Shown here piece after piece: positions 12,303-35,171 of a DNA stretch of 35,171 nt. The DNA is taken from the NCBI GenBank assembly GCA_943368305.1, contig CALRKX020000001.1, positions 1 through 35,171 of the forward strand, given 5' to 3'. This DNA comes from Erythrobacter sanguineus (GTDB lineage: Bacteria; Pseudomonadota; Alphaproteobacteria; Rhodobacterales; Rhodobacteraceae). The notes under the pieces are model-generated. The model was not told the DNA's origin and did not search any database. It saw only the letters and a list, made by a program, of their open reading frames with translations. Numbering within the stretch: position 1 is the stretch's first letter; every line of letters begins with the position of its first letter. Made by a program: the position numbers and the translations under genes.

Positions 12303-12348
12303 TTCCGGTGTATCCAATCGGCCTGTCCAACCACGGGCAAAGGCCGGA

Positions 12349-14641: not shown

Positions 14642-14657
14642 TTAATTGAGTATTAAC
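14642..14657 (+). promoter_or_regulatory. CtrA-binding site (TTAA-N7-TTAAC) in a divergent promoter region
   Basis: TTAA-TTGAGTA-TTAAC exact consensus match; an extra TTAC half-site lies in phase at 14631-14634. Confidence 0.65.
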
Positions 14658-14826
14658 CATCTGAAGACGCTCTGCTCGAAGTGAAGATCGCAGGCAGATC
14701 GTCACGAAACTGCCGGTTTTTTGGGGCCTTTAGACTGGGATAGGCTATCAGCCATGTGTGGCTTGCTGCTCAGCAAACAGACACCTAACCTTGAGATAGA
14801 GTGAACAAGACAACAGATCAGGCCCC

Positions 14827-15330: not shown

Positions 15331-15344
15331 TCGGAAACAAGACG

Positions 15345-16073: not shown

Positions 16074-16224
16074 GTTGCCGCTGCGTAATTTGCGGCAAGG
16101 ATGCCTCACCCGCCCCTCAACCCGTCACACCCGGCTTGCTCCGCCGCCCCCCCTGCTGCATCCTTCTGCCCGAACACAAGGCGGGCCACCGCCGGAACAA
16201 CAGCCGGAAACCGGCAGCAGGCAC

Positions 16225-17685
16225 ATGGACCGACATCGCATGGCGCCGCCGCGCCAAGCCCGTCGCCTCAGGGGGCGACCTCTTGCCTTCTCTGCCCTGG
16301 CGTTGGCCACGGCACTGGCTGCCTGTGCGCAACAGGAAGGCTACAAGACCCCGCATTTCCCCTTTTTAGGCTCTTATTCGCAACGAAAGGCCGCCCCCGT
16401 TCTGCTCTCGAATGCCGAATGGTGGCACGGGTTCCAGGACCCGGTGCTGGACCAACTGGCGACCGAGGCGCTGGGGGCGAACCTGTCGATCGCCGGGGCG
16501 AAGGAGCGGGTGGTCGAGGCCCGCGCCCAGGAACGCGGCGTGCCTGACCGGGCGGCGCTGTCCGCCTCGGTGACAGGCCAGCAGCAGGGCACAACCGGGG
16601 GCGGCGTGACCTCTTCCACCGAGGGCGATCTGGGGCTTTCCTGGATGCTGGACCCTTATGGCGAACGGCGCGCCCGCAAGGCCGCCGCTGCCGCCCGGGT
16701 CGAGGCGAGCGATGCCGAGACGGATGCCGCCCGCCTTCTGGTGCTTTACAACCTGTGCAACGCCTATGTGGACCTGCGCTATCAGCAACGCCTTCTGACG
16801 CTGCGCCAGCAGGAAATCACCAGCCGCCGCAGCACGCTTTCCCTTGCACAGAGCCTGTTTGATACGAGTTCCGGCACGAAACTGGATGTCACGCGCACCA
16901 AGGCCGAACTGGCCCAGGCCCAGGCCGACCTGCCGCTGATCGAGGCGGCAATCCGCGTTCAACAGAACCGGATCGCCGTGCTGGCAGGCCGCCAGCCCGG
17001 CACGCCCGGCCCCGAAACCGGCCCTGCCAAGGGCCAGCCGCACAGCCGGATGAGCACCGATATCGGCATTCCCGCCGATCTTCTGCGCAACCGCCCCGAC
17101 ATCCGCATCGCCGAACGGCTTTACTATGCCGCCGTCAGCGAGGTGACCGTTGCCCAGGCCGCCCTTTACCCCCGCCTGTCCCTGAGTGGCGCGATCAGCC
17201 TGACTTCGGTGCGCAAAGGTGGCACCAGCCGCGATTATTATTTCGGCCCCTCTGTCGCGCTGCCGGAATTTCCCAATGCCAGTACAAAGGCCGGGGTCGA
17301 GGCTGCCGCCTCGGCTGCCCGTCAGGCGCATATCGACTGGAAGGCCACCGTGCTGAACGCCTTGATGGAGGTCGAGAACGCGCTGGTTGAATATCAGGGC
17401 AGCAGCCGCGCCCTTGCCGCCACCGGGCGCAGCCTGACACTGTACCGAGAGGCGCAAGGGATGACGCGCGATCTGGTGAAATCCGGGGGCGCCACGGTGG
17501 GTGACCTGATCGATGCCGATCAATCGGTGACCAATGCGGCAAATGCCTTTGCCCAGACCCAGCGGCAGCAGGCGCTGGATTTCATTGCGCTGAACGTGCG
17601 GCTGGGCTCGGGCAGTGCGGCGGGCGAGGCCCCCGTTGCGACCCTCGTTGCGGCCCCTGCCCCGCCCCCCCCTCCGGGCGGTTAA
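16225..17685 (+). CDS. outer membrane efflux factor lipoprotein (NodT/TolC family)
   Basis: Lipobox LAAC; WWHGFQDPVL, GIPADLLRNRPDIRIAER, LYPRLSLSG, EVENAL. Confidence 0.88.
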   Translation: MDRHRMAPPRQARRLRGRPLAFSALALATALAACAQQEGYKTPHFPFLGSYSQRKAAPVLLSNAEWWHGFQDPVLDQLATEALGANLSIAGAKERVVEARAQERGVPDRAALSASVTGQQQGTTGGGVTSSTEGDLGLSWMLDPYGERRARKAAAAARVEASDAETDAARLLVLYNLCNAYVDLRYQQRLLTLRQQEITSRRSTLSLAQSLFDTSSGTKLDVTRTKAELAQAQADLPLIEAAIRVQQNRIAVLAGRQPGTPGPETGPAKGQPHSRMSTDIGIPADLLRNRPDIRIAERLYYAAVSEVTVAQAALYPRLSLSGAISLTSVRKGGTSRDYYFGPSVALPEFPNASTKAGVEAAASAARQAHIDWKATVLNALMEVENALVEYQGSSRALAATGRSLTLYREAQGMTRDLVKSGGATVGDLIDADQSVTNAANAFAQTQRQQALDFIALNVRLGSGSAAGEAPVATLVAAPAPPPPPGG

Positions 17686-20513: not shown

Positions 20514-20522
20514 TGTGGATAA
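20514..20522 (-). promoter_or_regulatory. DnaA box
   Basis: TGTGGATAA is the reverse complement of the consensus TTATCCACA. Confidence 0.75.
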
Positions 20523-20607
20523 CTTTACCCTGCCCGTCAATGAAACCACGAAACGAGTCGGCGCCCGAAACTGCGGGAAAGCGGACCGAGAGGGCAGAGG
20601 CAGGCAT

Positions 20608-21648
20608 ATGGCGGCAGCGGCACTTCCCGCGCGCGGCAGCGGCTATGGCAAAGGGGCAGCGGCGCTGTTGCCCGACCGGCATCCGACAGCCGATTTTTTT
20701 GTCTGTGACATCTTCGAAGCCTTGCCCAAGGGTGACCTTGCCTCGATGGAACATCCGATGTTCTCGCTGGGCACGCGCCCCGATCTGCGGATTCTCAGCT
20801 ATGCCCATAACGGGGCCGAGATCACCATCACCCCTTCGGTGCGCGGGCTGGCGACGATTCATGACAAGGACATTCTGATCTATTGCATCAGCCAGTTGAT
20901 GGCGGCGATCAATGCCGGAAGGGCGGTCAGCCGGGTGCTGCACCTGAAGGCGCATGACCTGTTGGTGGCCACCAACCGCGAAACCAGCGGCGACGGCTAT
21001 CAGCGCCTGCGCGAAGCGTTCGAGCGGCTGGCCGGCACCCGCATCACCACCAATATCGTCACCGGAGAGCTGGAGACCACCACGGGTTTCGGCCTGATCG
21101 AAAGCTGGCAGATCGTGCGCCACACCCGCGCGGGCCGGATGGTCAGCGTGATGGTCACCATCTCTGACTGGCTGTTCCGCTCGGTGCTGTCGAAATCGGT
21201 CCTGACACTGAGCCGCGATTATTTCCGGCTGAGAAAACCGCTGGAGCGCCGGGTCTACGAGATCGCGCGCAAGCATTGCGGGCGGCAGCCCGAATGGCGG
21301 ATCTCGGTGGAAACCCTGCTCAAGAAATCCGGCTCGGCCAGCCCGCGGCGCGTCTTTCGCAAGATGATCCGCGACATGATCGAGGCCGACACCCTGCCCG
21401 ATTACCGGCTGGAGGAAGAGCCGGGCGACATCCTGCGCGTCACCCCCCGCCGGGTGCCGCCCGAGGCGCTGCTGGGGGCGCCGCTTCTCGATCCCGACAC
21501 ACTGGACGAGGCGCGCCACCTCGCCCCCGGCTGGGACGTCCATGCGCTGGAGGCGGAATGGAAGAGCTGGTGGGTCGAAACCGGCCGCCCCCGCCTGCGT
21601 GCACCGGACAGGGCGTTCCTGGGCTGGGTCAAGGTGCGGGTAGGGTGA
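20608..21648 (+). CDS. repA: plasmid replication initiator protein A (RPA family, Rhodobacterales RepA-type)
   Basis: LLPDRHP..DFFVCDI, MEHPMFSL, GLATIHDKDILIYCISQL, RLAGTRITTNI, YFRLRKPLERRVYEIARKHCG, APGWDVHALE. Confidence 0.9.
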   Translation: MAAAALPARGSGYGKGAAALLPDRHPTADFFVCDIFEALPKGDLASMEHPMFSLGTRPDLRILSYAHNGAEITITPSVRGLATIHDKDILIYCISQLMAAINAGRAVSRVLHLKAHDLLVATNRETSGDGYQRLREAFERLAGTRITTNIVTGELETTTGFGLIESWQIVRHTRAGRMVSVMVTISDWLFRSVLSKSVLTLSRDYFRLRKPLERRVYEIARKHCGRQPEWRISVETLLKKSGSASPRRVFRKMIRDMIEADTLPDYRLEEEPGDILRVTPRRVPPEALLGAPLLDPDTLDEARHLAPGWDVHALEAEWKSWWVETGRPRLRAPDRAFLGWVKVRVG

Positions 21649-21717: not shown

Positions 21718-22659
21718 TTGGATCTTTATTATTACCATTCTTCCCACGGCAATTTTGGCGACGACCTGAACACCTGGATCTGGGATACGCTTCTGCCCGG
21801 CTGGCGCGAGGCTTGGCCTGGGACGACGCTGATCGGGGTGGGCACGTTGATCAACAACGGTTTACCTCGGGGTATGCCCAAGCTGATCGTGGGGTCGGGG
21901 CTGGGCTATGGCGATGTGCCGGATGCAGGCCTGATGGCCGAATGCCGGTTTGAAGCCGTGCGGGGGCCGCGTTCGGCCGCAGGTTTGGGTTTGTCGGCTG
22001 ACAAAGGCATTGTCGATCCGGCAATCATGTTGTCGGACTTTTCAGAATTTCAGGGGCTACCCCGAACGGAGCGCCCGATCTTTGTCCCGCATGAGGCATC
22101 TATTTACCGCAATGATTGGGCACGGCTGTGCGCGGCGGCGGGGGTTGACTATGTCTCTCCAAGCGGGGATGCCAAGACGGTCATCCACCGCCTTGCGACA
22201 GCCCCTTTGGTGATTGCAGAGTCCATGCATGCGGCCATCATTGCCGATACTTTTGGCACACCCTGGCATGCGGTCTCCATCTCTCATCGGTTCAATGGGG
22301 CGAAGTGGCTGGACTGGTCCGAGAGCGTGGGCGTGCAACTGAAGATATCACCGCTCTATCCCATCATGGAGCGGATTGCGCGGATCGTGCCCAAGCAAGC
22401 AGCGCCCGCGGCGGCGCGACAGGGCCATATGCATGTTGCTGATGCAGCAGCTCCCGCCAGCCCGAAGCCAGTCGGTCCGTCGCGGGGTAGCAAGCTGCCC
22501 CTGCGTCTCCGCCTGCGAATGGAACTGGAGGCCTTGCAAACCCCTTCTGCCTTGCGGAAAATTGTTGCCAGGCAGGGCCAACTCAGTGACAGGGCTATCC
22601 TGGAGCAGAGCAAGGAGCGGTATCGCGAGGTGCTGCGTCGGCTGCGCTCAGGGTTTTGA
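21718..22659 (+). CDS. exoV: ExoV-like polysaccharide pyruvyltransferase
   Basis: YYY..HGNFGDDLN.W.W..LLPG, GSGLGYG, VRGPRSA, FVPH, AESMHAAIIAD, KWLDW. Confidence 0.8.
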   Translation: MDLYYYHSSHGNFGDDLNTWIWDTLLPGWREAWPGTTLIGVGTLINNGLPRGMPKLIVGSGLGYGDVPDAGLMAECRFEAVRGPRSAAGLGLSADKGIVDPAIMLSDFSEFQGLPRTERPIFVPHEASIYRNDWARLCAAAGVDYVSPSGDAKTVIHRLATAPLVIAESMHAAIIADTFGTPWHAVSISHRFNGAKWLDWSESVGVQLKISPLYPIMERIARIVPKQAAPAAARQGHMHVADAAAPASPKPVGPSRGSKLPLRLRLRMELEALQTPSALRKIVARQGQLSDRAILEQSKERYREVLRRLRSGF

Positions 22660-22678
22660 AGCCAAGGGAGCGTGAAAA

Positions 22679-23239
22679 GTGGCAGAAGGGGTACATAAGG
22701 CGCGCCGCACTAAGCCGAAGCGGCTGGCACGGCTGATCCTGTCTTTCCTTGATCCGCGCGCCTGGGCCCATGCGGTCAAGGTGGTCAATTACTACAACTA
22801 TATCCATGTGACCGAACTGCGCAAAGTCACCAAGGGGCAAAAGCTGATCATCAGCCCGACCGCCAGTTTCGCCAACGGGCAGAACATCACCCTTGGCGAC
22901 CGCTGCCGCATCGGGGCCAATTGCTATCTGTGGGCCGGGCCGGGGCAGGGGCGGATTATTCTGGAGCCCGATGTGATGCTGGCCCCTGGCGTGATGATGT
23001 CGGCGGCGAACTATCGGTTCAACGACGGCAGCCCTGTCACCGATCAGGCGATGAAAGAGGCTGACATAACCATCGGCCGCGATGTCTGGATCGGTTATGG
23101 CGCGGTGATCCTGGCGGGGGCGCAAGTGGGGCAGGGGGCCATCATCGGTGCCGGTGCCGTTGTGCGGGGCAAGGTGGAGCCTTTTGCAATTGTGGCGGGC
23201 AATCCGGCCACGACCGTGGGCACGCGCCGACAGCCCTAG
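22679..23239 (+). CDS. hexapeptide-repeat (LbH) acetyltransferase
   Basis: ITLGDRCRIGANC, ITIGRDVWIGYGAVILAGAQVGQGAIIGAGAVV..VAGNPA. Confidence 0.9.
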   Translation: MAEGVHKARRTKPKRLARLILSFLDPRAWAHAVKVVNYYNYIHVTELRKVTKGQKLIISPTASFANGQNITLGDRCRIGANCYLWAGPGQGRIILEPDVMLAPGVMMSAANYRFNDGSPVTDQAMKEADITIGRDVWIGYGAVILAGAQVGQGAIIGAGAVVRGKVEPFAIVAGNPATTVGTRRQP

Positions 23240-24477
23240 CGCTTGGCAAAAACCCGGTCATAGGCGGCCAGCAGATGCGGCACCGAATGGGTCCAGGATA
23301 GCTTGTCGAACACGCGCTTGCGGCCCAGACGGCCCATTTCGCGGCCTTTTTCAGGATCGGCGATCAGCTCGGCGATTCTGGCTGCGAAATCCAAGGGGTC
23401 ATTGGCGCGGGCATAAAGCGAGGCACCTTCGGCCGAGGCGCGGCCTTCGGTCAGGTCAAACTGCACCACCGGCTTTTCCAGGGTCATGTATTCCATGACC
23501 TTGTTCATGGTGGAAATGTCGTTCATCCCGTTCTTGGGGTCGGGCGAAACCCCGATGTCGACCGAGTTCAGCACCCGCAGCAGGTCTTCGCCATATTGCG
23601 CACCGGTAAAGGTGAAATACTCGGCCAGGCCATGGGTGGCCACGTCGCGTTCCACTTCGGCCTGATGCGGGCCGAAGCCCACAATCACCACATGCAGATC
23701 GGTGTGGCCCATCTTGCGCACCAGGTGGTCAACCGCCTGGATCAGAAGGTCCAGCCCCTCTTGCTGGCCGATCACGCCGACCCAGCCAAGAACGGTCTTT
23801 GCCCCCTTGCGTACGGCAGGATCGGCGGGGCGCAGCTCGAACTTCTCGACCTTGGGGGCAGAGCGGACGACAAAGACATCCTCGGGGCGCATATGGCCAC
23901 GGGTCAGGGCGATGCGGCGAAAGCTTTCATTGGTGGCGATGGAGACAGAGGCGCAGGCAAAGGTGATCCGCTCCCACCACAACATGACCTTGTAGAGCAG
24001 GCCCCGCTTGTTGAACTTGGCCTCGAACAGCTCGGGACAGACATCGTGGTGATCGAAGAGATACCGCACCCCCGAAAGGCGATAGCGCAGCGCCAGAAGC
24101 CAGATCAGATCGGGCGGGTTGCAGCCGTGGATGACGTCAAACCCCTGTTCGCGCCGCACTTTGCGCGCCAGCCGGAACATGTGCCATAGGGCCAGACCAT
24201 ATTCGATGGCATAGGCCTTGGCCCCGGCATGGGCCTCTGGCGGTTCGGGATAGCGGTAGATGTGAACGCCGTCGATCAGCTCGTACTGTTTGTCCCAGCC
24301 GCGGCCGGTGGGGCAGATCACGCTGACATGATATCCGTGCTGCCTGAGCGTCGTCGCCTCCAGCCAGACCCGGCGGTCCAGCGGCACCGGCAGGTTTTCC
24401 ACCACGATCAGAACACGCCGTCCGGCCCCTGTGGCCGCGTTCAGCTTGTCCCCCGCGGTCTGATTGCCTTGCTGCAT
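23236..24477 (-). CDS. glycosyltransferase family 4
   Basis: VENLPVPLDRRVW, HGCNPPD, FDHHD.CPE, STMNKVMEYM; start uncertain (24477 or 24522). Confidence 0.9.
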   Translation of the reverse strand: MQQGNQTAGDKLNAATGAGRRVLIVVENLPVPLDRRVWLEATTLRQHGYHVSVICPTGRGWDKQYELIDGVHIYRYPEPPEAHAGAKAYAIEYGLALWHMFRLARKVRREQGFDVIHGCNPPDLIWLLALRYRLSGVRYLFDHHDVCPELFEAKFNKRGLLYKVMLWWERITFACASVSIATNESFRRIALTRGHMRPEDVFVVRSAPKVEKFELRPADPAVRKGAKTVLGWVGVIGQQEGLDLLIQAVDHLVRKMGHTDLHVVIVGFGPHQAEVERDVATHGLAEYFTFTGAQYGEDLLRVLNSVDIGVSPDPKNGMNDISTMNKVMEYMTLEKPVVQFDLTEGRASAEGASLYARANDPLDFAARIAELIADPEKGREMGRLGRKRVFDKLSWTHSVPHLLAAYDRVFAKR

Positions 24478-24621
24478 GCCTGTCGCCTGAAAGTTCCGTC
24501 GTTCTATAGGCTGTCTTGCCATGTTCCGCGTCAACCTGAAAGGCTTTGGCGTGATGCTGCATTGGCGAAAGGCGGCATTTTGCAAAGAAACTGGCCACAT
24601 CGCCGCAAGGAAAAGCGGCTT

Positions 24622-24639
24622 TGTTTCGCGTGCGAAACA
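24622..24639. promoter_or_regulatory. putative parS centromere site 2
   Basis: TGTTTCGCGTGCGAAACA is the exact reverse complement of the 18-bp core at 18759-18776. Confidence 0.7.
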
Positions 24640-24642
24640 GAT

Positions 24643-24658
24643 TGTTGCTGCAATGCAG
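24643..24658. promoter_or_regulatory. putative PhaR/AniA-like operator (CTGC-N3-GCAG)
   Basis: TGTTGCTGCAATGCAG, 15/16 identical to 34121-34136. Confidence 0.45.
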
Positions 24659-24752
24659 AAGATGGTGGCTTGAGAGTGTCACGGGTTGCTTGGGTCCGTT
24701 AGCCGAAGCTGCTAGCTTGCCGGTTCTGGAACAGGAAAGATTGAGGCAAGGG

Positions 24753-25703
24753 ATGATGGATCCTGTGATTTCGATCATAATGCCGCTTTACAATCGCGGC
24801 TGGTGTGTCGTCGACTGCATCGAAAGTATCGGTCTTGGGCCCACATGGGCCGAACTGATCATCGTCGATGACGGGTCAAGGGATGATTCCATTTCACGTG
24901 CCAGGCAAGCTTTGGCCCGGCTGGACCAGTCCACCAGGGTAACGCTGATCGAGCAAGAAAATGCGGGACCGAGTATCGCCAGAAACCGCGCCGCTGCTGC
25001 AGCAAAGGGCCAGTGGCTGGTGTTTCTGGACAGTGATGACCTGTGGTTTTCCTGGACCTTGCAGACGCTGTTTCAGGTTTTGGCGGCGGCTCCGTCAGAG
25101 GTGGACCTTGTCTTTTTGCAAGGGCGAAATTTTGCGGAGACCTCTGAACTTGCCAATATCCAGCCCGCCGCCGCCACAACCCAGGTTCACCCCAGTTTTG
25201 TCGATACGGTTCAGGCCGCTCCGGCTATGCGCTATGGGGCCTGCAACGCTGCAATCCGGCGTGCCGTCTTTGCCGGGTTGGGCGGGTTTGCCGCAGATCT
25301 GCGCTGCATGGAGGATACCGATCTTTTCCTGCGCGTCCCCGGTTCGGTCATGACGATTGCGTCCCCGGTTCTGGCCGCTTTGCGGCGCAGTGGCCATGAA
25401 AGCCTGTCGGGAAATGTGAAAGAGGTCATCAAGGGCTTTCACTGGCTGGTCACCAAGGCAGCCGAAGGCTGTTATATCGGTCGGCCAGAGGCAATCCGCA
25501 GCTTTCTTGCCGGTTCTTGCGCCTATTCGATCCGCACAGCCTTTGCCGCCGGATACCCTGCGCAGGCGTATCGGATATATCTGCGGAATATACAGCTTCT
25601 GGCAAACAGTCGCACACGAAAGCACCTTGTCAGGTTGCCTCTGACACCTCTTTTACATGCCTTGAGACCCGCAGCTTACCCCTACCGGCGTCGCCCGGCC
25701 TAA
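24753..25703 (+). CDS. glycosyltransferase family 2
   Basis: SIIMPLYNR, IVDDGSRD, NAGPSIARN, FLDSDD, EDTDL. Confidence 0.9.
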   Translation: MMDPVISIIMPLYNRGWCVVDCIESIGLGPTWAELIIVDDGSRDDSISRARQALARLDQSTRVTLIEQENAGPSIARNRAAAAAKGQWLVFLDSDDLWFSWTLQTLFQVLAAAPSEVDLVFLQGRNFAETSELANIQPAAATTQVHPSFVDTVQAAPAMRYGACNAAIRRAVFAGLGGFAADLRCMEDTDLFLRVPGSVMTIASPVLAALRRSGHESLSGNVKEVIKGFHWLVTKAAEGCYIGRPEAIRSFLAGSCAYSIRTAFAAGYPAQAYRIYLRNIQLLANSRTRKHLVRLPLTPLLHALRPAAYPYRRRPA

Positions 25704-25730
25704 GGGGTTTGCGATTACAAATACAGGACT

Positions 25731-25758
25731 CCCGACCCATGCGATGCAACGGGTCGGG
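25731..25758. terminator. stem-loop between convergent genes
   Basis: CCCGACCC...GGGTCGGG between stops at 25703 and 25782. Confidence 0.55.
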
Positions 25759-25781
25759 GCTACGAGGTCTATGATGCTGGA

Positions 25782-27461
25782 TCAGTAGGTGATCGGGGTT
25801 GCCAGATCGTGGCTGTGGCGCAGGGTTTCCAGCGTTGCGAACTCGGTTGGCGTCAACACCGAGTCATAGATCGACAGATTGCTGATCGTGCCGTCGAAGA
25901 AGGACGAGACCCTGTCGGTCGTGCCACGCGTGCTTTGGCCGTTGACCCCGCCCAGAACCAGATATTCGCTGTTGCCCGACAGATCGAGGTCGAAGGCCGC
26001 TTCGCCGACCTGGCTACCGTTTACCCACAGCTTTACCTTTTGTTCGTCAAAGGTGATCAGAACGTCGTAATCCGTGTTAGCCTTGATGCCGGTTTTCGAC
26101 AGGGTGATCGTCTGGCCCATGTCATTTTCGGCGCACAGGATCAGCTTGCCGTTCTGAATCCAGACGGAGAAATCATCGTCGTAACCAGCGGCCCCCTTCG
26201 AAATGATGCCGCGCGATCCTGCAACCGTATCGGCATTGAAGTTTACATGGATCGAGCCCGTGTCAATATCCATCGCCTTGTTGTCCGCCAGCTTCACGAC
26301 CCCGGATTTGGTGCCTGCCAGTTCATAGGACGTGTCGAGGTGATAGACCGAAGTGGGGGCCGTAGGCGTTACAACGGCAGGCGCTTCCCCCTGCTGGATG
26401 GGCGTGGCGGTTCCGAAATGCTCCAGCAGCAGATGGGCAAGACGGTCTTGCGCGCCTAGACCGGTTCCGAAATCGATGGCAGAGCCCGCGACAGGGACAA
26501 AATTTTCCCAGGTGGTTCCGTTGGTGCCATGAAACAAAGAGGAGAGATTGGCATTGCGACCGTAGAAGTAGTTGTCGGTAACAACAGAGGCCTTCGTCTC
26601 ATCCATGATCATCTTGGCAACATTGCCTTCGATGATCGTGCCGGAGTTGTTCATGCCGGCCTTGTCAACCAGCCGGATGATCGCTCCGCCATCCCCAACA
26701 CCGGGAATGAGCGTATTGTGGCGCACCACGACATTCTGCTGCCCGCCGTTGATGTAGATCGAGTTGGGCGAGTTGACGTTGATCAGGTTGTCTTCGATCA
26801 GGATATTCTTGTAGCCGCCCGCTGCGGGATCAGACACGAAGATGCCCTGTGCATTGATCTCACCTGTCGCCGGGTTGTCATAAAGCAGATTCCCGCGAAT
26901 GATGATGTCGTGCGGGGTAACGCCGTTGCTGGCGAAGAACTGAATCAGGTCGGGATGGGTGCCGCTTAGGGCGATCGTGTCGGAGAGAACATTGTTCTCG
27001 ACCAGACCATTGTAGCTATTGCCCGTGATCCGCATCACATCTGTCGAGACATTGCCGAAGGTGCTGTTTGTCACGGTGAAATTCTGGATCGAATTCAAGA
27101 GGATGCTGTATTGCCCCCCGGTCGCGGTGACATTGTCAACGACAAGGCCATTCACGTCACGGAAATTGAGGATACTGTTCGATGTTGAGTTCGTCAGAGA
27201 AATGTTCGCGGAAGATGTCGCCTCGAAACTGTACTGAAGTTTCAGCCCATCGAACGCCAGATTGCTTGCGCCGCTCAGGGTGATTTTCGAAAATGTCGCC
27301 CCCAGGGGATTTTCCGCCTGAATGGTGACCGCTGAAGAAAACGTGCTCTTCAGCGCAACTGTACCATAGTCTCCATTCGCAAGCAGGATGGTGTCTCCAC
27401 CTGTCGCGGTTTTCAGAGCAGAAAGAAGTTGGGTCTGGTTCGAGACCTTGATTGTAGCCAT
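25782..27461 (-). CDS. right-handed parallel beta-helix protein with C-terminal LamG/ConA-like domain, no signal peptide
   Basis: GGDTILLANGDYG start, repeated I/V-x-x-N beta-helix pattern, HPDLIQ; C-terminal IISKG..LWVNG..LVLGG..FFDGTISNLSIYDSVLT. Confidence 0.8.
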   Translation of the reverse strand: MATIKVSNQTQLLSALKTATGGDTILLANGDYGTVALKSTFSSAVTIQAENPLGATFSKITLSGASNLAFDGLKLQYSFEATSSANISLTNSTSNSILNFRDVNGLVVDNVTATGGQYSILLNSIQNFTVTNSTFGNVSTDVMRITGNSYNGLVENNVLSDTIALSGTHPDLIQFFASNGVTPHDIIIRGNLLYDNPATGEINAQGIFVSDPAAGGYKNILIEDNLINVNSPNSIYINGGQQNVVVRHNTLIPGVGDGGAIIRLVDKAGMNNSGTIIEGNVAKMIMDETKASVVTDNYFYGRNANLSSLFHGTNGTTWENFVPVAGSAIDFGTGLGAQDRLAHLLLEHFGTATPIQQGEAPAVVTPTAPTSVYHLDTSYELAGTKSGVVKLADNKAMDIDTGSIHVNFNADTVAGSRGIISKGAAGYDDDFSVWIQNGKLILCAENDMGQTITLSKTGIKANTDYDVLITFDEQKVKLWVNGSQVGEAAFDLDLSGNSEYLVLGGVNGQSTRGTTDRVSSFFDGTISNLSIYDSVLTPTEFATLETLRHSHDLATPITY

Positions 27462-27959
27462 CGCTGGTAACCCCCGTGAGCAGCGGCAGAAGCTTAACTT
27501 TCCGGGCAGAGATCGTGCATCTTCTGGGCGTTGTCTGGGCAGGACGGTGGTTTCGAGTCGATCAACTGTGCCGAAAACGCCGTATTTTTGACTGGATTTA
27601 CAAGAAAGCCGTTAACCTTGCGCGCGGAGTTCATTCATGGCGGCAAGTTCTTCAGGAAGGTCGGAACTATTTATTATCAGTATGATACATGAAAGCATCA
27701 CCTCAGATGCGCTGCTGTTTTCGAAGGTGTTCCCTGCTGGATACATTCTAGAAAGCAAGAAACGAGCATTGTATTTTCAGTGCATTTGAAGTGCATCTTG
27801 GTGGCGTAAATCCGCTCAAGCTATGTGGTTGCGCATTGACCCGAACGTCCTTCAGCCCCGCGGATTGTGGCCGACGAAAGGTTCCTTCTGGTATTTTCCA
27901 CTCTTGTCCAACCTGGACATGCTATCCTGCCCCTCCCTTTTGCCAGGTCATCCCTCACA

Positions 27960-29126
27960 ATGCCGCATCGGTTTTTTCTCCGCGTCTTGCTTCTAAATCT
28001 TGTGTTTGTGGTTCTGCATGGTCCGGCATGGGCACAGGACGTCCGTGTGAGGACGGCGGATGAACTTTCCATCGCATTGCAGAACGTGCAGGGAGGCGTG
28101 ATTGTTCTTGCCCCGGGCCGCTACGGTGATCTGGTGCTGCGAGACCGGAGTTTCAAAAACTCCGTCTCGCTGCGGGCCGAGGTCCCCCGCAAAGCGATCT
28201 TCGGCCAGGTGCGGCTGATGAACAGCGCGAACCTGCAGTTCGAAGGCCTTATGCTGGAAAAGCAGTTCCGCGTTGAAAGCAGCAAGAATATAGGCATCCG
28301 CGGCTGTCTGTCAGACGATATGTTGTATTTTCGAAATGTCAGCCATCTCCAGATTCAGGGCTGTGACGTCTCGGGTGGGCAATTCGGGGTTATCTTCAAC
28401 AGTGTGACCTATTTCGAGATACGGCAAAGCCGGGTTGGCAAGGTATCAGAAGACGTCATGCGCATCACCGGTGACAGCCATGACGGGCTGATTGAGGGCA
28501 ATATCCTCGATGACGTAATTTCCTATCCCCCCACACATCCGGATCTGATCCAGATGTTTGGGGCCCAGGGCAAGACGCCGGCCCGGATCACGATCCGTCG
28601 GAATTTCCTGCATGACAACCACGCGACAGGTTCCCCCAAGCGGACGGCACAGGGTATCTTCGTGTCAGATCCGGCGGGGGGGGGCTATCGGGATATCCTG
28701 ATCGAAGAGAATGTCATTAACACCCGGTCTGCCAATACCATTTACATCAATGGCGGACAAAAGCATGTCGTGGTGCGTAACAACACCCTGTTGCCGGGCG
28801 TCGGCGACGGTGGTGCGATCATCCGGTTGGTGGGCAAGGCGCGACAAAGCAATTCCGGCACAGTCGTCGAAGGCAACATAGCCAAGCAGATTCTGGATGA
28901 AACCAAGGATGCGCGCGTCGGACAAAACTACCTTTACGGCCGCGGTGCAAAAATCCTCGCGCTCTTCTCTGGCACTGGTGCCCGCTGGCAGGATTTTCTT
29001 CCTGTTCTGGGCACGGGCGCCGACAAACCCGGGATGGGGGCGACGGATTTTCTGCGCGAGCTTCTGGCTGCGCAGAAGCCCGGGGCCAAGGGTGGGCCGC
29101 GTCTGGGGCCGGACTGGTCCGAATAG
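27960..29126 (+). CDS. right-handed parallel beta-helix protein with Sec signal peptide (paralog of 25782..27461)
   Basis: Signal peptide ending AWA-QD; GGVIVLAPGRYG, HPDLIQ, QGIFVSDPAGGGY, PGVGDGGAIIRLV. Confidence 0.8.
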   Translation: MPHRFFLRVLLLNLVFVVLHGPAWAQDVRVRTADELSIALQNVQGGVIVLAPGRYGDLVLRDRSFKNSVSLRAEVPRKAIFGQVRLMNSANLQFEGLMLEKQFRVESSKNIGIRGCLSDDMLYFRNVSHLQIQGCDVSGGQFGVIFNSVTYFEIRQSRVGKVSEDVMRITGDSHDGLIEGNILDDVISYPPTHPDLIQMFGAQGKTPARITIRRNFLHDNHATGSPKRTAQGIFVSDPAGGGYRDILIEENVINTRSANTIYINGGQKHVVVRNNTLLPGVGDGGAIIRLVGKARQSNSGTVVEGNIAKQILDETKDARVGQNYLYGRGAKILALFSGTGARWQDFLPVLGTGADKPGMGATDFLRELLAAQKPGAKGGPRLGPDWSE

Positions 29127-29235: not shown

Positions 29236-29496
29236 ATGCCTGACAGATTTCAGAACACCGCCGGCGGCATCAATGCGCCGGCCATTGCCGCCTTTGCCGT
29301 TACCCCCAGCGATATCGTCGATCTGGTCGAACCGGTGCGGCAGGTCACCCTGAATGTCGGCGGCACCCTGCGCTGGAGCGGGCGGGACGGCACGGTGAAC
29401 ACCACCGCCGCGCTGCCTGCCGGGTCTTATGCCCTGTCGGCCACACGCATCCATGCCACCGGCACCACGGCAACCGGCATCACGGGCTGGGTCTGA
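29236..29496 (+). CDS. ghsA: GTA/phage head-spike base protein (RCAP_rcc01079 family)
   Basis: 86 aa; MPDRF..PA..AFAVTPSD..DL...R......GGTL......G.......PAG.......RI.ATGTTATGI pattern recognised from the family; RBS AAGGA. Confidence 0.82.
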   Translation: MPDRFQNTAGGINAPAIAAFAVTPSDIVDLVEPVRQVTLNVGGTLRWSGRDGTVNTTAALPAGSYALSATRIHATGTTATGITGWV

Positions 29497-31358
29497 TGCG
29501 GATCGGCTTCGGGATCGGCCTGGGCAGGCCGGGGGCGGTGGCCGGGGTGGCCCCCCTGTCTCCACCAACGCTGAGTCTGACCCTGATCCCCGCCGCGCCT
29601 GCGGTGGGGGATCTGGTCACGATAACGGGAATCGCCGGCGGCAATCCGGCTCCGACCGATTTTGCCAGCCTGACACTGACCATCGGCGGCACGGCGGTGG
29701 GCTTGGCGGGAACCGGGTTGGCTCGCACCTTCGTGGCGCGGGCGGGGGCAATTTCGGCCTCGGCCTCGGTCACGACGACCGAAGGCACGGCCAGCAATAC
29801 CTTGTCGGGCACGGTTGCGGCGGGCACCACCGTGGCCTCGCTCAGTGGTTTTGGCTCTTCGACGATCGAGGGTGACGGCGCATCGGGCACAGCCGCCTAT
29901 GCGCTGAACCTGATTGGCGGAGCGATGGCGGCGGGCACCCTTCGCAACAAGGGCATTGCCGGCACCGTGCTGCAAAACAGCCCCGACAGCACCGGCAATC
30001 CGATGGCCAGCAACGGGCGCGACCGGTTTGTCGCCGATCTTCTGGGGGCGAACCGCTCGGCGCGGCTTTGCATCCTTTATGGGGCCAATGACCTGCGCTA
30101 TACGGCAGCGCCCGCGACCTTCAACCTCGCAGGCTTTGCCACCGACATGCGCGAGGTGATGAACGGCCTTCTGCTGGGCGGCTATGCGCAGGGCGAGATC
30201 GTGATCGGGTCACCGAACTGGTATCCTGATACCACCTATTCCGTCGGCAGCGCGGGGTTCACCGGGTCGAACCGCACGATCCATGAAGCCTATGTGAACG
30301 AATGTTTGGCAATCGCCACCGAGTACGGCGTCGCCTATGCCGATGTTTACGGCAAGCTGCGCGATCTGGGGGGCGTTGCCCTGATGAGCGCGGATGGCCT
30401 GCATTGCAATGACGCCGGCCATCAGGTGATCGCCCATGCCTTTCTGACGGCGGCGCAGGTGAATACGCGGGCAGCGGTCACGTTGGGCGCGGCCAGTTCG
30501 CCCAGCCTGCAAACCCTGTCGCTGGGCTGGAGTGCGGTTGCTGGTGCCGTCAGCTATACGGTCGAGGCGGGGCTTTCGGGCAGCTACGGCTTTGCCCAGG
30601 GCGCCACGGTCACCAGCACCACGAACAGCTTTACCGGGCTGGCGGCGGGGGCCTATGTCGGGCGCGTCCGGGCGAATTTCGCCGATGGGGCAGGGCCATG
30701 GAGCTTCTGGACCACGCCGGTCACGGTCAGCGACAGTGCGGCACCCGCCCGCACGGTGACAGGGCAGGACACGTTCACCGGCAAGGTGGCGGGCACCTTG
30801 GTCGAGGCGCTGGTGCCCACGCTGGGCACCTGGGTGCGCCATGCCAGCAGCACCGGGAATGCGGCCATCACCTCGGATGCCGTGGCGCTGCGCGGGCCGG
30901 GGACAACCAGCCAGTTCTGCGTAGCGACCCTGGCTAATCAGGCGCTGGGGGCAGGGGTGTTTGTCGAGCTGGATTACAAGGTGCTGACCAACAACGCGCA
31001 ACTGACCAGCTATGGGGTGGCGCGGGCCTCTGCCGCCGATCTGACCTTTCTGGCGGCGGGCTATAACGGGGCGGCCTGGCGCATCCTGAAATATGTGGCG
31101 GGCACGGCGACGGTTCTGGGCACCTATACCTTTGCCGAGACGGTGGGCGCACTGCCCACCATGCGGTTCGAGGTGGAAACCGGCATCCAGCGGCTTTACC
31201 GCAATGATGTGCTGGTGCTGACCACGACTGAACCCGACAGCGGTCTTGGCGCCACGGGCACCGGGCTTGGCCTGCGGATAGGGGCGGGCACGACGGCCTG
31301 GACCTCGGCCAACGGCGCGCCCTACATCGGCATAAGGGTGGGCCGGCTGGGGGCGTGA
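29496..31358 (+). CDS. putative head-spike fibre (GhsB/rcc01080-like N-terminal anchor) with SGNH hydrolase, Fn3 and C-terminal beta-sandwich domains
   Basis: N-terminus MRIGFGIGLG; TGATG overlap with ghsA; SGNH blocks GSST, KGIAG, YGAND, DGLH; Fn3-like WSAVAGAVSYTV..TGL..Y..RVRA..GPWS. Confidence 0.72.
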   Translation: MRIGFGIGLGRPGAVAGVAPLSPPTLSLTLIPAAPAVGDLVTITGIAGGNPAPTDFASLTLTIGGTAVGLAGTGLARTFVARAGAISASASVTTTEGTASNTLSGTVAAGTTVASLSGFGSSTIEGDGASGTAAYALNLIGGAMAAGTLRNKGIAGTVLQNSPDSTGNPMASNGRDRFVADLLGANRSARLCILYGANDLRYTAAPATFNLAGFATDMREVMNGLLLGGYAQGEIVIGSPNWYPDTTYSVGSAGFTGSNRTIHEAYVNECLAIATEYGVAYADVYGKLRDLGGVALMSADGLHCNDAGHQVIAHAFLTAAQVNTRAAVTLGAASSPSLQTLSLGWSAVAGAVSYTVEAGLSGSYGFAQGATVTSTTNSFTGLAAGAYVGRVRANFADGAGPWSFWTTPVTVSDSAAPARTVTGQDTFTGKVAGTLVEALVPTLGTWVRHASSTGNAAITSDAVALRGPGTTSQFCVATLANQALGAGVFVELDYKVLTNNAQLTSYGVARASAADLTFLAAGYNGAAWRILKYVAGTATVLGTYTFAETVGALPTMRFEVETGIQRLYRNDVLVLTTTEPDSGLGATGTGLGLRIGAGTTAWTSANGAPYIGIRVGRLGA

Positions 31359-31365: not shown

Positions 31366-32169
31366 TCAGGGCAGCGCGAACTCCTGGCGGATTTTCGCTG
31401 TCAGCGGGCGATAGCGGGCAAGGCGGCGCAGGGTATTCAGAGGATACCTCCTTAGACGGTAGAACGGGGTCATTGCGCGGAAAATGCCAGCGGTACCGCT
31501 GGCTGACCCCGAAACGCCGATACGATAGATCACGGCGGGAAAGGGAAGGGGAGCGAGTGCATCTGCGGTACCCTGCAAATCGGGCATGTTGAAAAGGTGA
31601 CTGCCCAGGCGCCGCTTGATCGCCGCAATATCGGGTTGGCCCTCTGATGTCTCGAAAGTCCCCAGAACCCGCCGCTTCAGGATATGTGAGGTGCCGCAAC
31701 TTCTGTGCAGCCGCCTGGTCCGGTAGCACCAGCGTCCGCCTGAATAGAGATAACCTTGCGGAATGTACCACCCCGGCGCAATCCGCTTCTGGGATACGAA
31801 TTCAGCCAGACGACTGCTGACAAAATCGTCGTAATCGACCGGCATGATGAAGGCCTCTGGCGGCAGGTCGCGCATGCCTTCGTAAATGCGCAGACCCTTA
31901 TCTTGGCGGATAGCGTCATAATACGCCTCCATGCCCTGCGCTGGGTCAGGCAGGTCGGGTGCGGGTAAATCGATGAAGCGCGCCACGCAGCGCGGTGGCA
32001 AGGGCGGCAGGATGGCGCCATGGCTGGCAACCAGCCGACACTCCCAATTCTGGGTGGTCTGAGCTGTGATTGAGGCCAGCGTCTGTTCAAGATTGCGCTG
32101 AACCGCATCCCAGTCATGGACCGTATCGTGATGACGGACAGGAATGACGAAATACAGAAGGCAACTCAT
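31366..32169 (-). CDS. GT-A-fold glycosyltransferase-like protein
   Basis: FVIPVRH, TLASITAQ, DxDD motif (VDYDDFVS), CGTS; follows GT2 genes on the same strand. Confidence 0.65.
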   Translation of the reverse strand: MSCLLYFVIPVRHHDTVHDWDAVQRNLEQTLASITAQTTQNWECRLVASHGAILPPLPPRCVARFIDLPAPDLPDPAQGMEAYYDAIRQDKGLRIYEGMRDLPPEAFIMPVDYDDFVSSRLAEFVSQKRIAPGWYIPQGYLYSGGRWCYRTRRLHRSCGTSHILKRRVLGTFETSEGQPDIAAIKRRLGSHLFNMPDLQGTADALAPLPFPAVIYRIGVSGSASGTAGIFRAMTPFYRLRRYPLNTLRRLARYRPLTAKIRQEFALP

Positions 32170-32216
32170 GAAACAGCCTCCAATATGGGTTGCGCGGAAG
32201 GTTTGCGAAAACCAAG

Positions 32217-33080
32217 TCAGGATAGCAGGCTACGCAAAAATTGCAGCGCAGTCCTTGGCTTTTTCCCCAGCAAAAATGCAGTCCGCAGATGTGGGCGCGC
32301 CTTTGCCTGTTTCTTCAGCTTTTGCCAGACCCGGCCCGTAATATAGTGATTGCGCGCGGCATGTCCGGGGTTGCGGGCAAAGATATCGGCGTATTTCTCA
32401 AGAATGCGCGCCCGCGCAATGGCGTCGTTTTCCACGAAGGACGAGATGTTTCCGGCGGTGGCGAAAATCACCACCATCGGTTCCGGCAGAAAGACGAACT
32501 CAGTCTCTTGCGCGACACGGATCATCAGATCCCAGTCCTGGAACCGCTTCAGCGCAGCATCGAAATACCCCACCTTGTCCAGCACTGCACGACGCACCAC
32601 CAGCACCTGGGTGCTGGTGGTGTTGCGCCGCAGGATCTCGGCCGAAAGATCGCCCTCCAACCGGTCAAAGACCGGCTCGGGGATGTAAAAGGTGCGTTGG
32701 GGGCTGGAAAACAGCGAACCGCACTAGCACAGGCCGGCCTGTGGATTGGCGTCCAGCGCCGCGACCTGTGCCGCCAGCTTGTGGGGCAGCCAGACATCGT
32801 CGCTGTCCTGAAAGCCGATCAGATCGCCCTTCGCCGCCTCGATCCCCAGATTGCGCGCGCCCGATCCGCCGCGGTTCACATCCGACAGGATCAGCCGCAC
32901 CTTGGGGTGGTCGCGATAGGTTTCCAGCACGGCGCGCGTGCCATCCCTCGAGGCGTCATCGACGATGATCAGTTCGAAATCGCCATAGGTCTGGGCCAGC
33001 ACGCTGTCGATGGCGCGTGCGACCAGCGCCTCTCGGTTATAGGCGGGCAGGATGACGGAAACGCGGGGAGTCTTGGTCAT
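32217..33080 (-). pseudogene. glycosyltransferase family 2 interrupted by one in-frame TAG (32724-32726)
   Basis: ORFs 32724..33080 and 32217..32660 are in the same frame; read-through gives ...AGLC*CGSLFSSPQRTFYIPEP...; N half has VILPAYNR, DDASRD, FQDSDD and C half has FD..LKRFQDWDL. Confidence 0.85.
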
Positions 33081-34055
33081 TCAGATATCCGCCCAGCCGT
33101 TCCACCATTCGGCCCGGCGCGTCCAGACCTCTTTCAATTTCGAGATATTGTCCTGACGGCTGGCGCTGTTGCCTTTCAGCCGCGCCCGCGCCTTGGCCCC
33201 CCAAAGTCTCATCAACGGCCAGAGACGGAACATCCAGGTAGCAAGTGCCTTCTGCCAACCGGGGAAGTGGTCTCGGATAAGCCGTATCTTGGCCTTCAGC
33301 AGCATCACCAGCTTTGACCCACGCAACTGTTGCGAGGCCCCGACATAATGGATGATCGTAGCCTCGGGTGTGATCATCGGGCGCGCGCCGATGACAGAGG
33401 CGCGCAGGCAAAGATCCGCCTCCTCGCCATACATCACATAGCTGAGGTCGAATCCATCCAGATGGTTCCACAGTGTGCGCTTCATCAGCAGGAATGCCCC
33501 GGTGACAATATCAACCTCGCGCTCGGTATCCCGCTGCCAGTCGCCATAGCCTTCGGGATTGAAGAGGGGGCTACGTTGAAAGATGCTGCTGAGGCCGGTC
33601 GTGGTGCAAAACACCGACCACAGCGTCATCTTCCCCCAGCAAGAGGTCGGGTTCAGGCTGCCATCACCGTAAAGCGTGCGCCCGCCCCAGATTTCCGCCT
33701 GTGGCGCGCGTTTGGCAAAGGCCAGAAGCCGATCAATCGCGCCGTCCAGCACCACGGTGTCGGGGTTCAAAAGCAGGATGTATTCGCCCCGCGCCACCTG
33801 GCCCGCGATGTTGTTGGCACGGGCAAATCCGTGGTTTTCGGTCTCGGCCATCAGCCGGACGCCGGGAAATTCGGCCGCCACCGCCGCCGCCGTTCCATCC
33901 TTCGAGTCATTGTCGATCAGGATGACTTCATGCGCGCAAACCGTCTGCGCCGCGATCGAGCGCAGGCAGTCCAGCGTCATCTCTCGGGTGTTGAAACTGA
34001 CAACAATCACCGAAACCTCGGGCAACTGGTCACTGGACTGAACGGAATTGGTCAT
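33081..34055 (-). CDS. glycosyltransferase family 2 (WbbL/GT2-like)
   Basis: SVIVVSFNT, IDNDSKDG, NHGFARANN, LLLNPDT, TGAFLL, MYGEEADLC. Confidence 0.9.
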   Translation of the reverse strand: MTNSVQSSDQLPEVSVIVVSFNTREMTLDCLRSIAAQTVCAHEVILIDNDSKDGTAAAVAAEFPGVRLMAETENHGFARANNIAGQVARGEYILLLNPDTVVLDGAIDRLLAFAKRAPQAEIWGGRTLYGDGSLNPTSCWGKMTLWSVFCTTTGLSSIFQRSPLFNPEGYGDWQRDTEREVDIVTGAFLLMKRTLWNHLDGFDLSYVMYGEEADLCLRASVIGARPMITPEATIIHYVGASQQLRGSKLVMLLKAKIRLIRDHFPGWQKALATWMFRLWPLMRLWGAKARARLKGNSASRQDNISKLKEVWTRRAEWWNGWADI

Positions 34056-34120
34056 CAATTTGCCCTGATCGGGAAGTCCCTTGCCCTGAATATCCTAGGG
34101 AAATCCCCGGGGCGCAATGG

Positions 34121-34136
34121 TGTTGCTGCAACGCAG
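34121..34136. promoter_or_regulatory. putative PhaR/AniA-like operator (CTGC-N3-GCAG)
   Basis: TGTTGCTGCAACGCAG in the divergent GT2/T1SS promoter region. Confidence 0.45.
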
Positions 34137-34184
34137 CTTACGGGCCGCCTGCGGCCAGCACCCGACAGCAGAAAGGAACGTCAG

Positions 34185-35171
34185 ATGGCCGTGACTGAAG
34201 GCAAGGCATCCGCCCCCTCCGCCGCCAGCCAGCCAGAGCTGAACGCCTATCGCAGCGCCCTGCGCGCCATGCGCCGCCCGGTCATGGCGGCGGGGTTCTT
34301 CAGCGCGCTGATCAGCCTTCTGATGCTGACCGGCTCGCTTTACATGTTGCAGGTCTATGACCGGGTGCTGTCTTCGGGATCGGTTGCCACCTTGCAGGGC
34401 CTGTTCGTCATCGTGACGCTGGCTTACGCCTTTTACGGTCTTTACGAATTCCTGCGCGCGCGCATCCTGTCGCGCGCAGCCATGCGGCTGGAGGGGCAGG
34501 TGGCCCCGGTGGCCTTTCGCGCCTGGCTGAAATCGGGGTTGCAGGGCGGGCAGGGTCAGGCCCAGCCGATGCGGGATCTTGAGATCCTGCGCAGCTTTCT
34601 GTCAGGCCCGGCGATCGGCGGGTTGTTCGATCTGCCGTGGATGCCGCTTTATGTGCTGATCCTGTGGCTGATCCATCCGCTGCTGGGGCTTCTGACGCTG
34701 GGGGGCGCAGGCGTTGCCATCGTGGTCGCGCTGGTCAACCACTGGATGACCCGTGGCTCGGCCGACCGCGCCATGGCGGGCGATGCCCAGGCGCGCGGCT
34801 TTGCCGATCAGGGCCAGCGTCAGGCCGAGCTGATCGAGGCGATGGGCATGCAGGCCGATGTGACCGCGCGCTGGCGCGAGTTGCAGGGCGCGGGCCTTGC
34901 CGCCAGCCAGCAGGGCACCGATGTGACCGAGGCGACCTCTTCCTTCTCGAAGGCGTTCCGCAATTTCCTGCAATCGGCCATGCTGACCCTGGGGGCCTGG
35001 CTGGTCTTGGGTCATCAGATGTCGGCGGGCATGATCATTGCCACCTCGATCCTGTCGGGCCGCGCGCTGGCGCCGGTGGATCAGATCATTGGCCAGTGGC
35101 GGGCCATCTCGCGCGCGGCCGTCGCCCACCGCCGCCTGACCGAGTTTTTTGACCGTGAAACCGCCACCCCG
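34185..35171 (+). CDS. type I secretion system permease/ATPase (PrtD/AprD family), 3' truncated by the window edge
   Basis: Not in the ORF track; read manually: RBS AAGGA, MAVTEGK...FFSALISLLMLTGSLYMLQVYDRVLSSGS..FDLPW.P..SILSGRALAPVDQ. Confidence 0.9.
   Translation, partial: MAVTEGKASAPSAASQPELNAYRSALRAMRRPVMAAGFFSALISLLMLTGSLYMLQVYDRVLSSGSVATLQGLFVIVTLAYAFYGLYEFLRARILSRAAMRLEGQVAPVAFRAWLKSGLQGGQGQAQPMRDLEILRSFLSGPAIGGLFDLPWMPLYVLILWLIHPLLGLLTLGGAGVAIVVALVNHWMTRGSADRAMAGDAQARGFADQGQRQAELIEAMGMQADVTARWRELQGAGLAASQQGTDVTEATSSFSKAFRNFLQSAMLTLGAWLVLGHQMSAGMIIATSILSGRALAPVDQIIGQWRAISRAAVAHRRLTEFFDRETATP

Follow-up and report, generated by a model that had tools for sequence, protein, structure and literature searches.

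A GhsA/GhsB-like spike gene pair within an exopolysaccharide gene cluster on a probable RepA-I-like plasmid

The spike base and fibre genes

The window analyzed here, a stretch of 35,171 nucleotides from Erythrobacter sanguineus (contig CALRKX020000001.1), contains two open reading frames (ORFs) on the forward strand, 29236-29496 (86 aa) and 29496-31358 (620 aa), which overlap by one base in TGATG. A preliminary description made from the letters alone had taken them for a head-spike gene pair of a gene transfer agent (GTA), similar to ghsA/ghsB of Rhodobacter capsulatus and located in a capsule cluster on a plasmid-type replicon. The 86-aa product matched the NCBIfam family NF048002 ('spike base protein, RCAP_Rcc01079 family') with 80.4 bits at a cut-off of 28, the solved Rcc01079 chain 6tb9 (E 4e-8), and phrog_12296 (E 9e-24), in full agreement with the proposed Rcc01079-type spike base. 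None of 14 control genomes matched NF048002, and in the host genome (G000; 65% complete) this base was the single match. Among viral contigs, only distant spike bases (33-39%) were obtained. A complex prediction of four bases (not a pentamer) with fibre residues 1-36 scored 0.01 and was not used as evidence.

The predicted TGATG coupling to a 620-aa ORF starting with MRIGFGIGLG is present in the sequence. This N-terminus follows the alternating hydrophobic-Gly pattern of the fibre of the R. capsulatus GTA (RcGTA), in which residues 2-10 (IALGLGLGL) are described to dock in five pockets of the base pentamer (PMC7296036), and thus places the product among the coupled fibres with a docking peptide. 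Beyond the first ~10 residues, no homology to Rcc01080 was found, either with the PDB sequences or by BLAST against the family holding the RcapMu homologue. The earlier designation as ghsB-like therefore holds for the docking peptide and not for the remaining chain; judged by its sequence, the fibre is a functional analogue of GhsB and not an orthologue.

A single-sequence AlphaFold prediction of the fibre reached a mean local confidence (pLDDT) of 34, and a model based on an alignment of 47 rows was used instead (mean pLDDT 92.6). The fibre comprises an N-peptide (residues 1-11, disordered in the model), an Ig-like domain (22-107), an SGNH domain (113-320; PF13472 by Pfam), an FN3 domain (327-413), and a lectin jelly-roll of the CBM66/ConA-like type (419-618). 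Foldseek searches with parts of the fibre returned SGNH hydrolases (target template modelling (TM) score up to 0.79) and CBM66 lectin modules (0.75), while the whole chain matched, among others, the phage N4 tail and G7C gp63.1 (E 1.5e-7 for the latter) at low overall TM. The SGNH blocks are intact, with Ser122 (block I), Gly156 (II), Asn198 (III), and Asp300-x-x-His303 (V) forming the triad S122-D300-H303. In 47 homologue rows, Ser122 and Asp300 were conserved in 46 and His303 and Asn198 in all. Thus, the fibre is likely an acetyl-esterase as predicted from the model, a point absent from the preliminary description. We presume that it would be an active O-acetyl-esterase acting on exopolysaccharide (EPS) because of the SGNH fold and the O-acyl- and acetyltransferases encoded in the neighbouring cluster. 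No signal-peptide-like stretch was seen at the N-terminus on inspection.

Relative to the orthologues in the sister genome G004, the base had a ratio of nonsynonymous to synonymous substitutions (dN/dS) of 0.14 and the fibre one of 0.10, similar to that of five neighbouring EPS genes (0.05-0.15); both genes are under purifying selection. Full-length orthologues (55-90% identity) occurred in many samples, in several genomes within the same EPS and replicon context, and fibre relatives in the survey described below were limited to the window's own clade. The GC content of the pair (0.67) is higher than that of the flanking EPS genes (0.55-0.62). Among surveyed loci, an Acyl_transf_3 gene accompanied esterase fibres in 7 of 14 cases versus 10 of 55 (p 0.03); as five of the 14 belong to the window's clade, this association was given no weight.

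As far as the sources describe it, the pair shares with RcGTA GhsA/GhsB (rcc01079/rcc01080) a homologous base and a translationally coupled fibre with hydrophobic-Gly N-peptide, as well as a locus apart from the GTA cluster that adjoins polysaccharide genes (PMC5026251, PMC7296036, PMC10218006). In contrast to the chromosomal RcGTA pair, the window pair appears to reside on a RepA replicon, and its fibre has 620 instead of 325 residues with a non-homologous body and an esterase domain. Also unlike RcGTA, the window base belongs to a clade rich in phage spikes, and a CtrA box is missing from its upstream region. With the de-acetylating SGNH proteins described for phages (G7C gp63.1 and the spikes of PP99, Possum, and Aristophanes), the fibre has in common the SGNH domain with a full triad in what would be a virion appendage. 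The former are tail proteins of lytic phages, whereas the window fibre would sit as a monomer on the head of a GTA encoded by the host and its gene adjoins acetyltransferases of the presumed substrate.

The exopolysaccharide cluster and its replicon

The genes upstream of the pair (21718..29126, strand unspecified; Pfam) encode a pyruvyltransferase, a hexapeptide acetyltransferase, glycosyltransferases of families GT4 and GT2, and two beta-helix proteins, one of them with a LamG domain. The downstream segment (31366..35171, strand unspecified; Pfam, NCBIfam) comprises a gene of 267 aa, glycosyltransferase-like by position only, a GT2 gene with an in-frame stop (32217-33080), a further GT2 gene, and the gene of the type I secretion ATPase PrtD, which runs past the contig end. 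A left EPS arm (8593..17685, mixed or unspecified strand; Pfam, NCBIfam) encodes a DegT aminotransferase, a Wzx flippase, a GT2 enzyme, an Acyl_transf_3 protein, a hexapeptide acetyltransferase, a small SGNH protein, a NodT-like outer-membrane factor, and a likely exosortase-target protein (10018-10563) with a VPVP..AAG motif. Between the arms lie parB-like (17682-18740, reverse strand) and parA-like (18783-20165, reverse strand) partition genes, identified by Pfam/NCBIfam scan, and a RepA-I-like replication initiator gene repA (20515..21648, forward strand, likely start 20608; PF10134, E 1e-98). Glycosyltransferases, flippase, and repA/parAB thus surround the pair as described earlier. The EPS inventory of the whole window includes one acyltransferase, two hexapeptide acetyltransferases, and one pyruvyltransferase. 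The cluster is a Wzy/exosortase-type EPS locus, whose product may be either capsule or slime; of the capsule cluster proposed before, the polysaccharide genes stand. No phage families occurred among 36 window proteins scanned with Pfam and NCBIfam and 12 more scanned with Pfam (PHROGs covered four proteins only), consistent with the statement that the window has no other phage genes.

Contigs from four independent metagenome runs tiled positions 17000-35171 in 30 of 30 bins, with no single piece spanning the whole, and a search of sequencing runs listed no RNA dataset holding the locus. The closest named locus was found in Fuscibacter oryzae KVB23 (contig14; L071), with 94% identity of the base and 92% of the fibre. 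In G004 (same genus, 97% complete), the window genes from a rhomboid gene (~6907) to prtD are arranged in the same order on contig C6. This contig of 60,477 bases is circular, because its ends both lie inside parA and overlap by 123 bases. Three G000 contigs (C1, C21, C155) cover most of it at 84-92%, and from this synteny the replicon of G000 itself would be circular. The rest of C6 encodes Wza, a TPR protein, an exosortase, an ExeA-like protein, Wzz/Wzc, Ugd, HlyD, a second acyltransferase, and a leucine-catabolism-like block. The RepA protein shared 76% of its residues with an annotated RepA-I and 75% with that of a 52.5-kb Marinovum algicola record. The replicon is likely a RepA-I-like plasmid carrying repA/parAB and the EPS cluster, in support of the plasmid-type replicon of the preliminary description.

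As a side observation, the window harbors an M24 peptidase gene and a dppABCDF operon (221-6805) for which no orthologous match was found in G004. The G004 plasmid has the leucine-catabolism-like block in this place, which looks like a slot for variable cargo.

With the RepA-I biofilm plasmids of Rhodobacteraceae (Michael et al. 2016, PMC5030684), the replicon shares, as far as reported there, the RepA-I-like initiator, parAB, a size of ~60 kb, and a content of mostly polysaccharide genes. The rhamnose operon and capsular ABC exporter forming the core of those plasmids were not found among the window ORFs or 24 scanned ORFs from the rest of G004 C6 (chosen from 43, the other 19 having the appearance of shadow frames), and a Wzy-type, exosortase-linked cluster is present instead. 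The accessible text of PMC5030684 mentions no phage or spike genes for biofilm plasmids; horizontal transfer of RepA-I plasmids was inferred there. Our data on mobility are divided. A patchy presence of the spike base, in two of five same-genus genomes, would fit the earlier notion of a transferable replicon; the other three (G001-G003) have a GTA marker without a spike base. Against it, no relaxase was found among the same set of ORFs and, as detailed below, most finished plasmids with a spike base were typed non-mobilizable.

Spike-base loci, GTA genes, and phage relatives in the family

We surveyed 401 genomes of the family Rhodobacteraceae, about one per genus, 157 of which contained NF048002. 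From the best 150 of 182 matches, omitting short contigs and those ranked lowest, 123 loci in 116 genomes were obtained, and 80 named loci picked by likeness to the window were added. Clusters of neighbouring genes were named with Pfam (150 of 183 representatives) and then made into local profiles. Defining loci with at least three EPS-type genes within 10 kb of ghsA as EPS-linked, we assigned 77 of the 123 family loci to this class; 17 had one or two EPS-type genes, 27 had none, and two were prophage-like. A PHROGs spot check on most of the 27 (2-4 neighbours each) gave one capsid-related match. In the control, 5 of 129 20-kb windows were EPS-linked; these came from the fragmented G000 alone, and the profiles had been trained on the very loci surveyed, so that the difference, though large, is overstated. 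A spike base within a polysaccharide cluster is the commonest ghsA context in the family, and the window locus exemplifies an arrangement that is widespread but has received little description.

RepA was encoded in 50 of the 116 ghsA genomes and on the ghsA contig itself in 17, with one more case being ambiguous. The latter contigs were 46-111 kb in size, plus one of 301 kb; 16 of the 17 were EPS-linked, and their nine adjacent fibres belonged to nine families. A query with a mainstream ghsA retrieved 32 finished plasmids (29 alphaproteobacterial), 28 of them typed non-mobilizable. In all three that were inspected, ghsA is located in an EPS cluster: Rhodovulum sp. MB263 pRSMBB encodes RepA, a rhamnose operon, and a peptide-bearing fibre of 851 aa; the fibre encoded by Tritonibacter mobilis p4 has 254 aa and likewise carries the peptide; Jannaschia CCS1 p1 encodes RepA and a MOBQ relaxase, and the annotated start of the gene next to ghsA lacks the peptide. 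The idea that a plasmid location is unique to the window was rejected on account of the 17 RepA contigs and the 29 finished alphaproteobacterial plasmids.

The 130 coupled fibres (142-1554 aa) share the N-peptide, with the consensus L-G-L-G-L-G-L, and form 55 families. Pfam searches on 109 of them named few domains, namely LamG, SGNH, SASA esterase, and FN3/Ig. Such fibres were missed earlier because only a 10-residue peptide is shared. Separately, we observed that about one third of the EPS-linked ghsA genes are intact and have no fibre gene within 10 kb (L153, L163, L167, L169, L186, L252, L255, L265, and others).

Among 63 EPS-linked fibre loci, pairs with the same fibre family shared more similar EPS genes (difference 0.151, p 0.0002 in a permutation that ignores linkage and relatedness), and 17 of 21 pairs with an EPS similarity of at least 0.5 had the same fibre family, most being close kin. 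In a one-per-genus set of 38 loci the difference was 0.043 (p 0.004). At 55-65% ghsA identity, EPS similarity was equal with or without a shared fibre (0.041 vs 0.040), and the two largest fibre families span unrelated EPS clusters (mean similarity 0.02-0.03). Families f6 and f14 keep both the fibre and the EPS set at ~51% ghsA identity. Within the species, one run carried 30 listed differences at 29960-30092, in an SGNH loop of the fibre, and another a replaced version of the gene after the fibre (31438-32283); the two swaps fall in different strains. Fibre and EPS genes are thus inherited jointly; of the co-variation proposed earlier this part stands, and a functional match beyond shared descent is hypothetical.

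In the host, G000 contig C180 contains GTA genes from portal to tail tube that are 89-98% identical to the G004 cluster. Its capsid gene, which matches the RcGTA capsid (E 1e-177), is the only HK97 capsid gene found in G000, and gafA is located on contig C34. For the GTA itself, g11-g15 could not be found in the assembly, which is 65% complete, so that the host GTA cluster expected by the preliminary description was recovered in part, together with gafA. A g12-g15-like tail module on contig C183 was rejected as the GTA's own tail, as it is 44% identical to the G004 GTA versus 62-64% to three other copies that we read as prophage-type; it is probably part of a prophage with GTA-like tail genes. 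RcGTA capsid residue Asp210 could not be mapped, with Phe standing at that number in the PDB alignment. Neither G000 nor G004 yielded a Mu-type capsid.

Across the family, gafA was present in all 58 ghsA genomes tested. The GTA tail marker occurred in 147 of 157 ghsA-positive and 208 of 244 ghsA-negative genomes; ghsA was accordingly commoner with the marker (147 of 355) than without it (10 of 46; Fisher p 0.01), although kin are not independent in this test and ghsA-negative genomes were read by eye. A CtrA-type box, in the form that we presume to be its consensus, occurred with at most one mismatch within 200 bases upstream in 19 of 103 EPS-linked ghsA genes versus 5.3 expected from AT-matched neighbours, and in none of 13 phage-linked ones. 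Gapped k-mer and Gibbs searches upstream of ghsA returned only GC-rich hairpin-like and weak TTAAC-like motifs. EPS-linked and phage-linked spikes could not be told apart by their amino-acid carbon cost (p 0.6-0.7).

In a spike-base tree built from 48 of 208 rows (22 of them randomly sampled EPS rows) and 86 columns, with no true root, the window's clade of six (support 98/94) was nested in a branch of 23 rows (support 100/98). The other 17 members of this branch were ten phage or prophage spikes by annotation or neighbours, five neutral ones, and two from EPS clusters. An approximately unbiased (AU) test, for groups named after the first tree was seen, rejected a single clade of the window group and the sampled EPS-linked bases (p 0.007). 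The nearest relatives outside the clade were spikes of Pben1, RcapMu, and Paracoccus prophages. Because of the phage-rich clade, which had not been noted before, and the AU test, we consider an independent capture of the window spike from a temperate phage likely, albeit not proven. The head-spike pairs of RcapMu, RcapNL, RcWaterboi, and vB_PbeS_Pben1, its nearest tree neighbours, have the same base-fibre gene pair; they sit among tail and lysis genes, whereas the window pair has no phage neighbours.

Some further homologues were observed in passing. Spike bases also occur beyond the alphaproteobacteria, in Anaerolineales, Paenibacillus, Microbacteriaceae, and 15-kb Bacillus cereus elements (L085, L107, L134; H69-H71), and one viral contig (L031) carries two spike-base genes in tandem. 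The record NZ_CP089971.1 (L037/L041), labelled plasmid pORIO5, holds leuS, valS, gatB, and purM and looks chromosomal; it also contains a prophage that looks broken and encodes a spike base together with an SGNH fibre unrelated to that of the window.

Possible roles of the pair and further observations at the locus

Parts of this arrangement have been published already: the linkage to capsule genes in R. capsulatus, two cases on plasmids, and the RepA-I biofilm plasmids with their inferred horizontal transfer (Michael 2016, PMC5030684). According to Hynes 2016 (PMC5026251), ghsAB adjoin capsule genes and are co-regulated with them, rcc01079 homologues occur in 9 of 21 genomes, plasmid copies exist in Roseobacter litoralis and Jannaschia CCS1, a phage origin is likely, no Rcc01080 homologue was seen in the other Rhodobacterales examined there, and local synteny is restricted to genera. 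Linkage of spike and receptor genes is described in print for R. capsulatus only. Literature searches turned up nothing on EPS linkage across the family, on the diversity of the fibres, on a head fibre with an esterase, or on a model of compatibility types; the supplements of Hynes 2016 and Michael 2016 may include some of the present loci.

We favour, with some reserve, the view that the pair forms the head spikes of the host's chromosomal GTA, which would bind and probably de-O-acetylate the EPS specified by the surrounding plasmid genes. Captured from a phage and expressed under GTA-type regulation, as we infer, the proteins would assemble on the GTA capsid. Five GhsA subunits would cap each capsid vertex, and the N-peptide, with its alternation of hydrophobic residues and Gly, would anchor one fibre to them in the manner of RcGTA. 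Holding on to the EPS by its C-terminal lectin, the fibre would remove acetyl groups with its esterase and so let the particle pass through the EPS to the tail receptor.

Several findings weigh against this view. The window base groups with phage and prophage spikes, whose capsids differ; its position equivalent to the acidic Glu12 of Rcc01079 is Asn, and most EPS-linked homologues also lack an acidic residue there. No CtrA box, by the presumed consensus and even at two mismatches, is present in the 200 bases upstream of the window ghsA. G000 has the prophage-type tail module on C183, and G004 has three further HK97 capsid genes. Ten of the 157 ghsA genomes lack the GTA tail marker, with three of the four tested giving no capsid match; in G195 (one contig; L243) and the near-closed G068 (L234), base and fibre lie in EPS clusters in genomes without capsid or tail marker, and neither marker was found in the clade member G425 (of unstated completeness). 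In addition, 34 of the 77 EPS-linked ghsA genes have no adjacent fibre, ~6 of them with a displaced candidate.

Some of these points would fit a role without any particle, in which a small pentamer with the esterase-lectin is released on lysis or exported and acts on the matrix by remodelling or marking it; its use by the GTA of R. capsulatus would then be one special case. Fibre-less loci, ghsA genomes without GTA markers, the missing CtrA box, and the type I secretion system adjoining the pair are in favour of this role. We nevertheless regard it as unlikely, as the fibres retain the coupled docking peptide throughout their 55 families, CtrA boxes are more frequent than expected over the family as a whole, no signal-peptide-like stretch was seen, and ghsA is depleted in GTA-less genomes, where its retention could reflect a lag after GTA loss. 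Similarly improbable is a spike that decorates the GTA but targets a different polysaccharide, with EPS loci serving as hotspots of gene capture that offer suitable regulation. The spread of the two largest fibre families over unrelated EPS clusters, the equal EPS similarity at 55-65% ghsA identity, and the swaps of fibre and next gene in different strains would agree with this; the sharing of a fibre family by most pairs at high EPS similarity (17 of 21) and the conservation in f6 and f14 argue for a matching target, and in R. capsulatus adjacent genes are reported to make the receptor (PMC10218006).

The phage relatives of the base, the prophage-type tail module in G000, and the extra capsids in G004 might also be explained by a plasmid-kept phage spike that is added in trans to prophage capsids, serving or countering the host's temperate phages. 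This is very unlikely in our judgement: hosts of the clade differ in prophage content while GTA capsid and tail markers occur in four of five relatives tested, and in neither G000 nor G004 was a Mu-type capsid found. Finally, an inert prophage remnant could be suspected from the phage-rich clade and the deviating GC content. The dN/dS values of 0.10-0.14 largely refute it and, together with the intact catalytic residues and the full-length orthologues, which keep the same context in several genomes, make it scarcely credible.

Beyond the head-spike reading, we tentatively put forward a broader and more doubtful one, in which EPS plasmids of Rhodobacteraceae act as transferable GTA 'mating types' that combine a head spike, captured repeatedly from temperate phages, with an exchangeable fibre matched to the EPS, in the case of the window an esterase matched to acetylated EPS. 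Such plasmids may carry both the cell-surface 'lock' and the particle 'key'. Production of GTAs kills the producer cell, which raises the question of how its benefit is directed to kin; the linkage of spike and EPS genes bears on this question. If the mating-type reading is true, particles from a lysing cell would preferentially reach cells with the same plasmid, and this greenbeard-like linkage could contribute to an explanation of the upkeep of suicidal GTA production. The strict 'compatibility type' of the preliminary description has to be softened, since head spikes are not obligatory for transfer in R. capsulatus, where their loss is reported to reduce transfer by about two-thirds (Hynes 2016, PMC5026251). 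A cosmid with capsule genes was described to confer recipient ability (Alim 2023). As high-GC chromids are reportedly packaged into GTA particles (Tomasch 2018), the 2-kb fibre gene could itself move by GTA. The unit is often located on curable RepA plasmids, including the finished ones of Rhodovulum, Tritonibacter, and Jannaschia, making the idea of kin targeting directly testable. The survey moreover yields ~50 protein families that lack annotation and likely bind or modify polysaccharides, each encoded beside genes for a candidate ligand.

A few minor features of the locus were noted in addition. The 267-aa gene directly after the fibre (31366-32169, reverse strand) is among the genes most divergent from G004 (73%); another allele occurs in run X3 and part of X2, making the gene a candidate determinant of EPS type. 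In the GT2 gene at 32217-33080 (reverse strand), the in-frame stop is at codon 119 and the G004 orthologue is intact; all four independent runs differ at base 32724, indicating either an assembly error or a private mutation. The two beta-helix proteins (25782-29126) are divergently transcribed paralogues, each ~50% identical to the G004 orthologue of the other. Their family is a frequent neighbour of ghsA (31 copies in 23 loci), and its members may be polysaccharide lyases, perhaps exported by the adjoining type I system.

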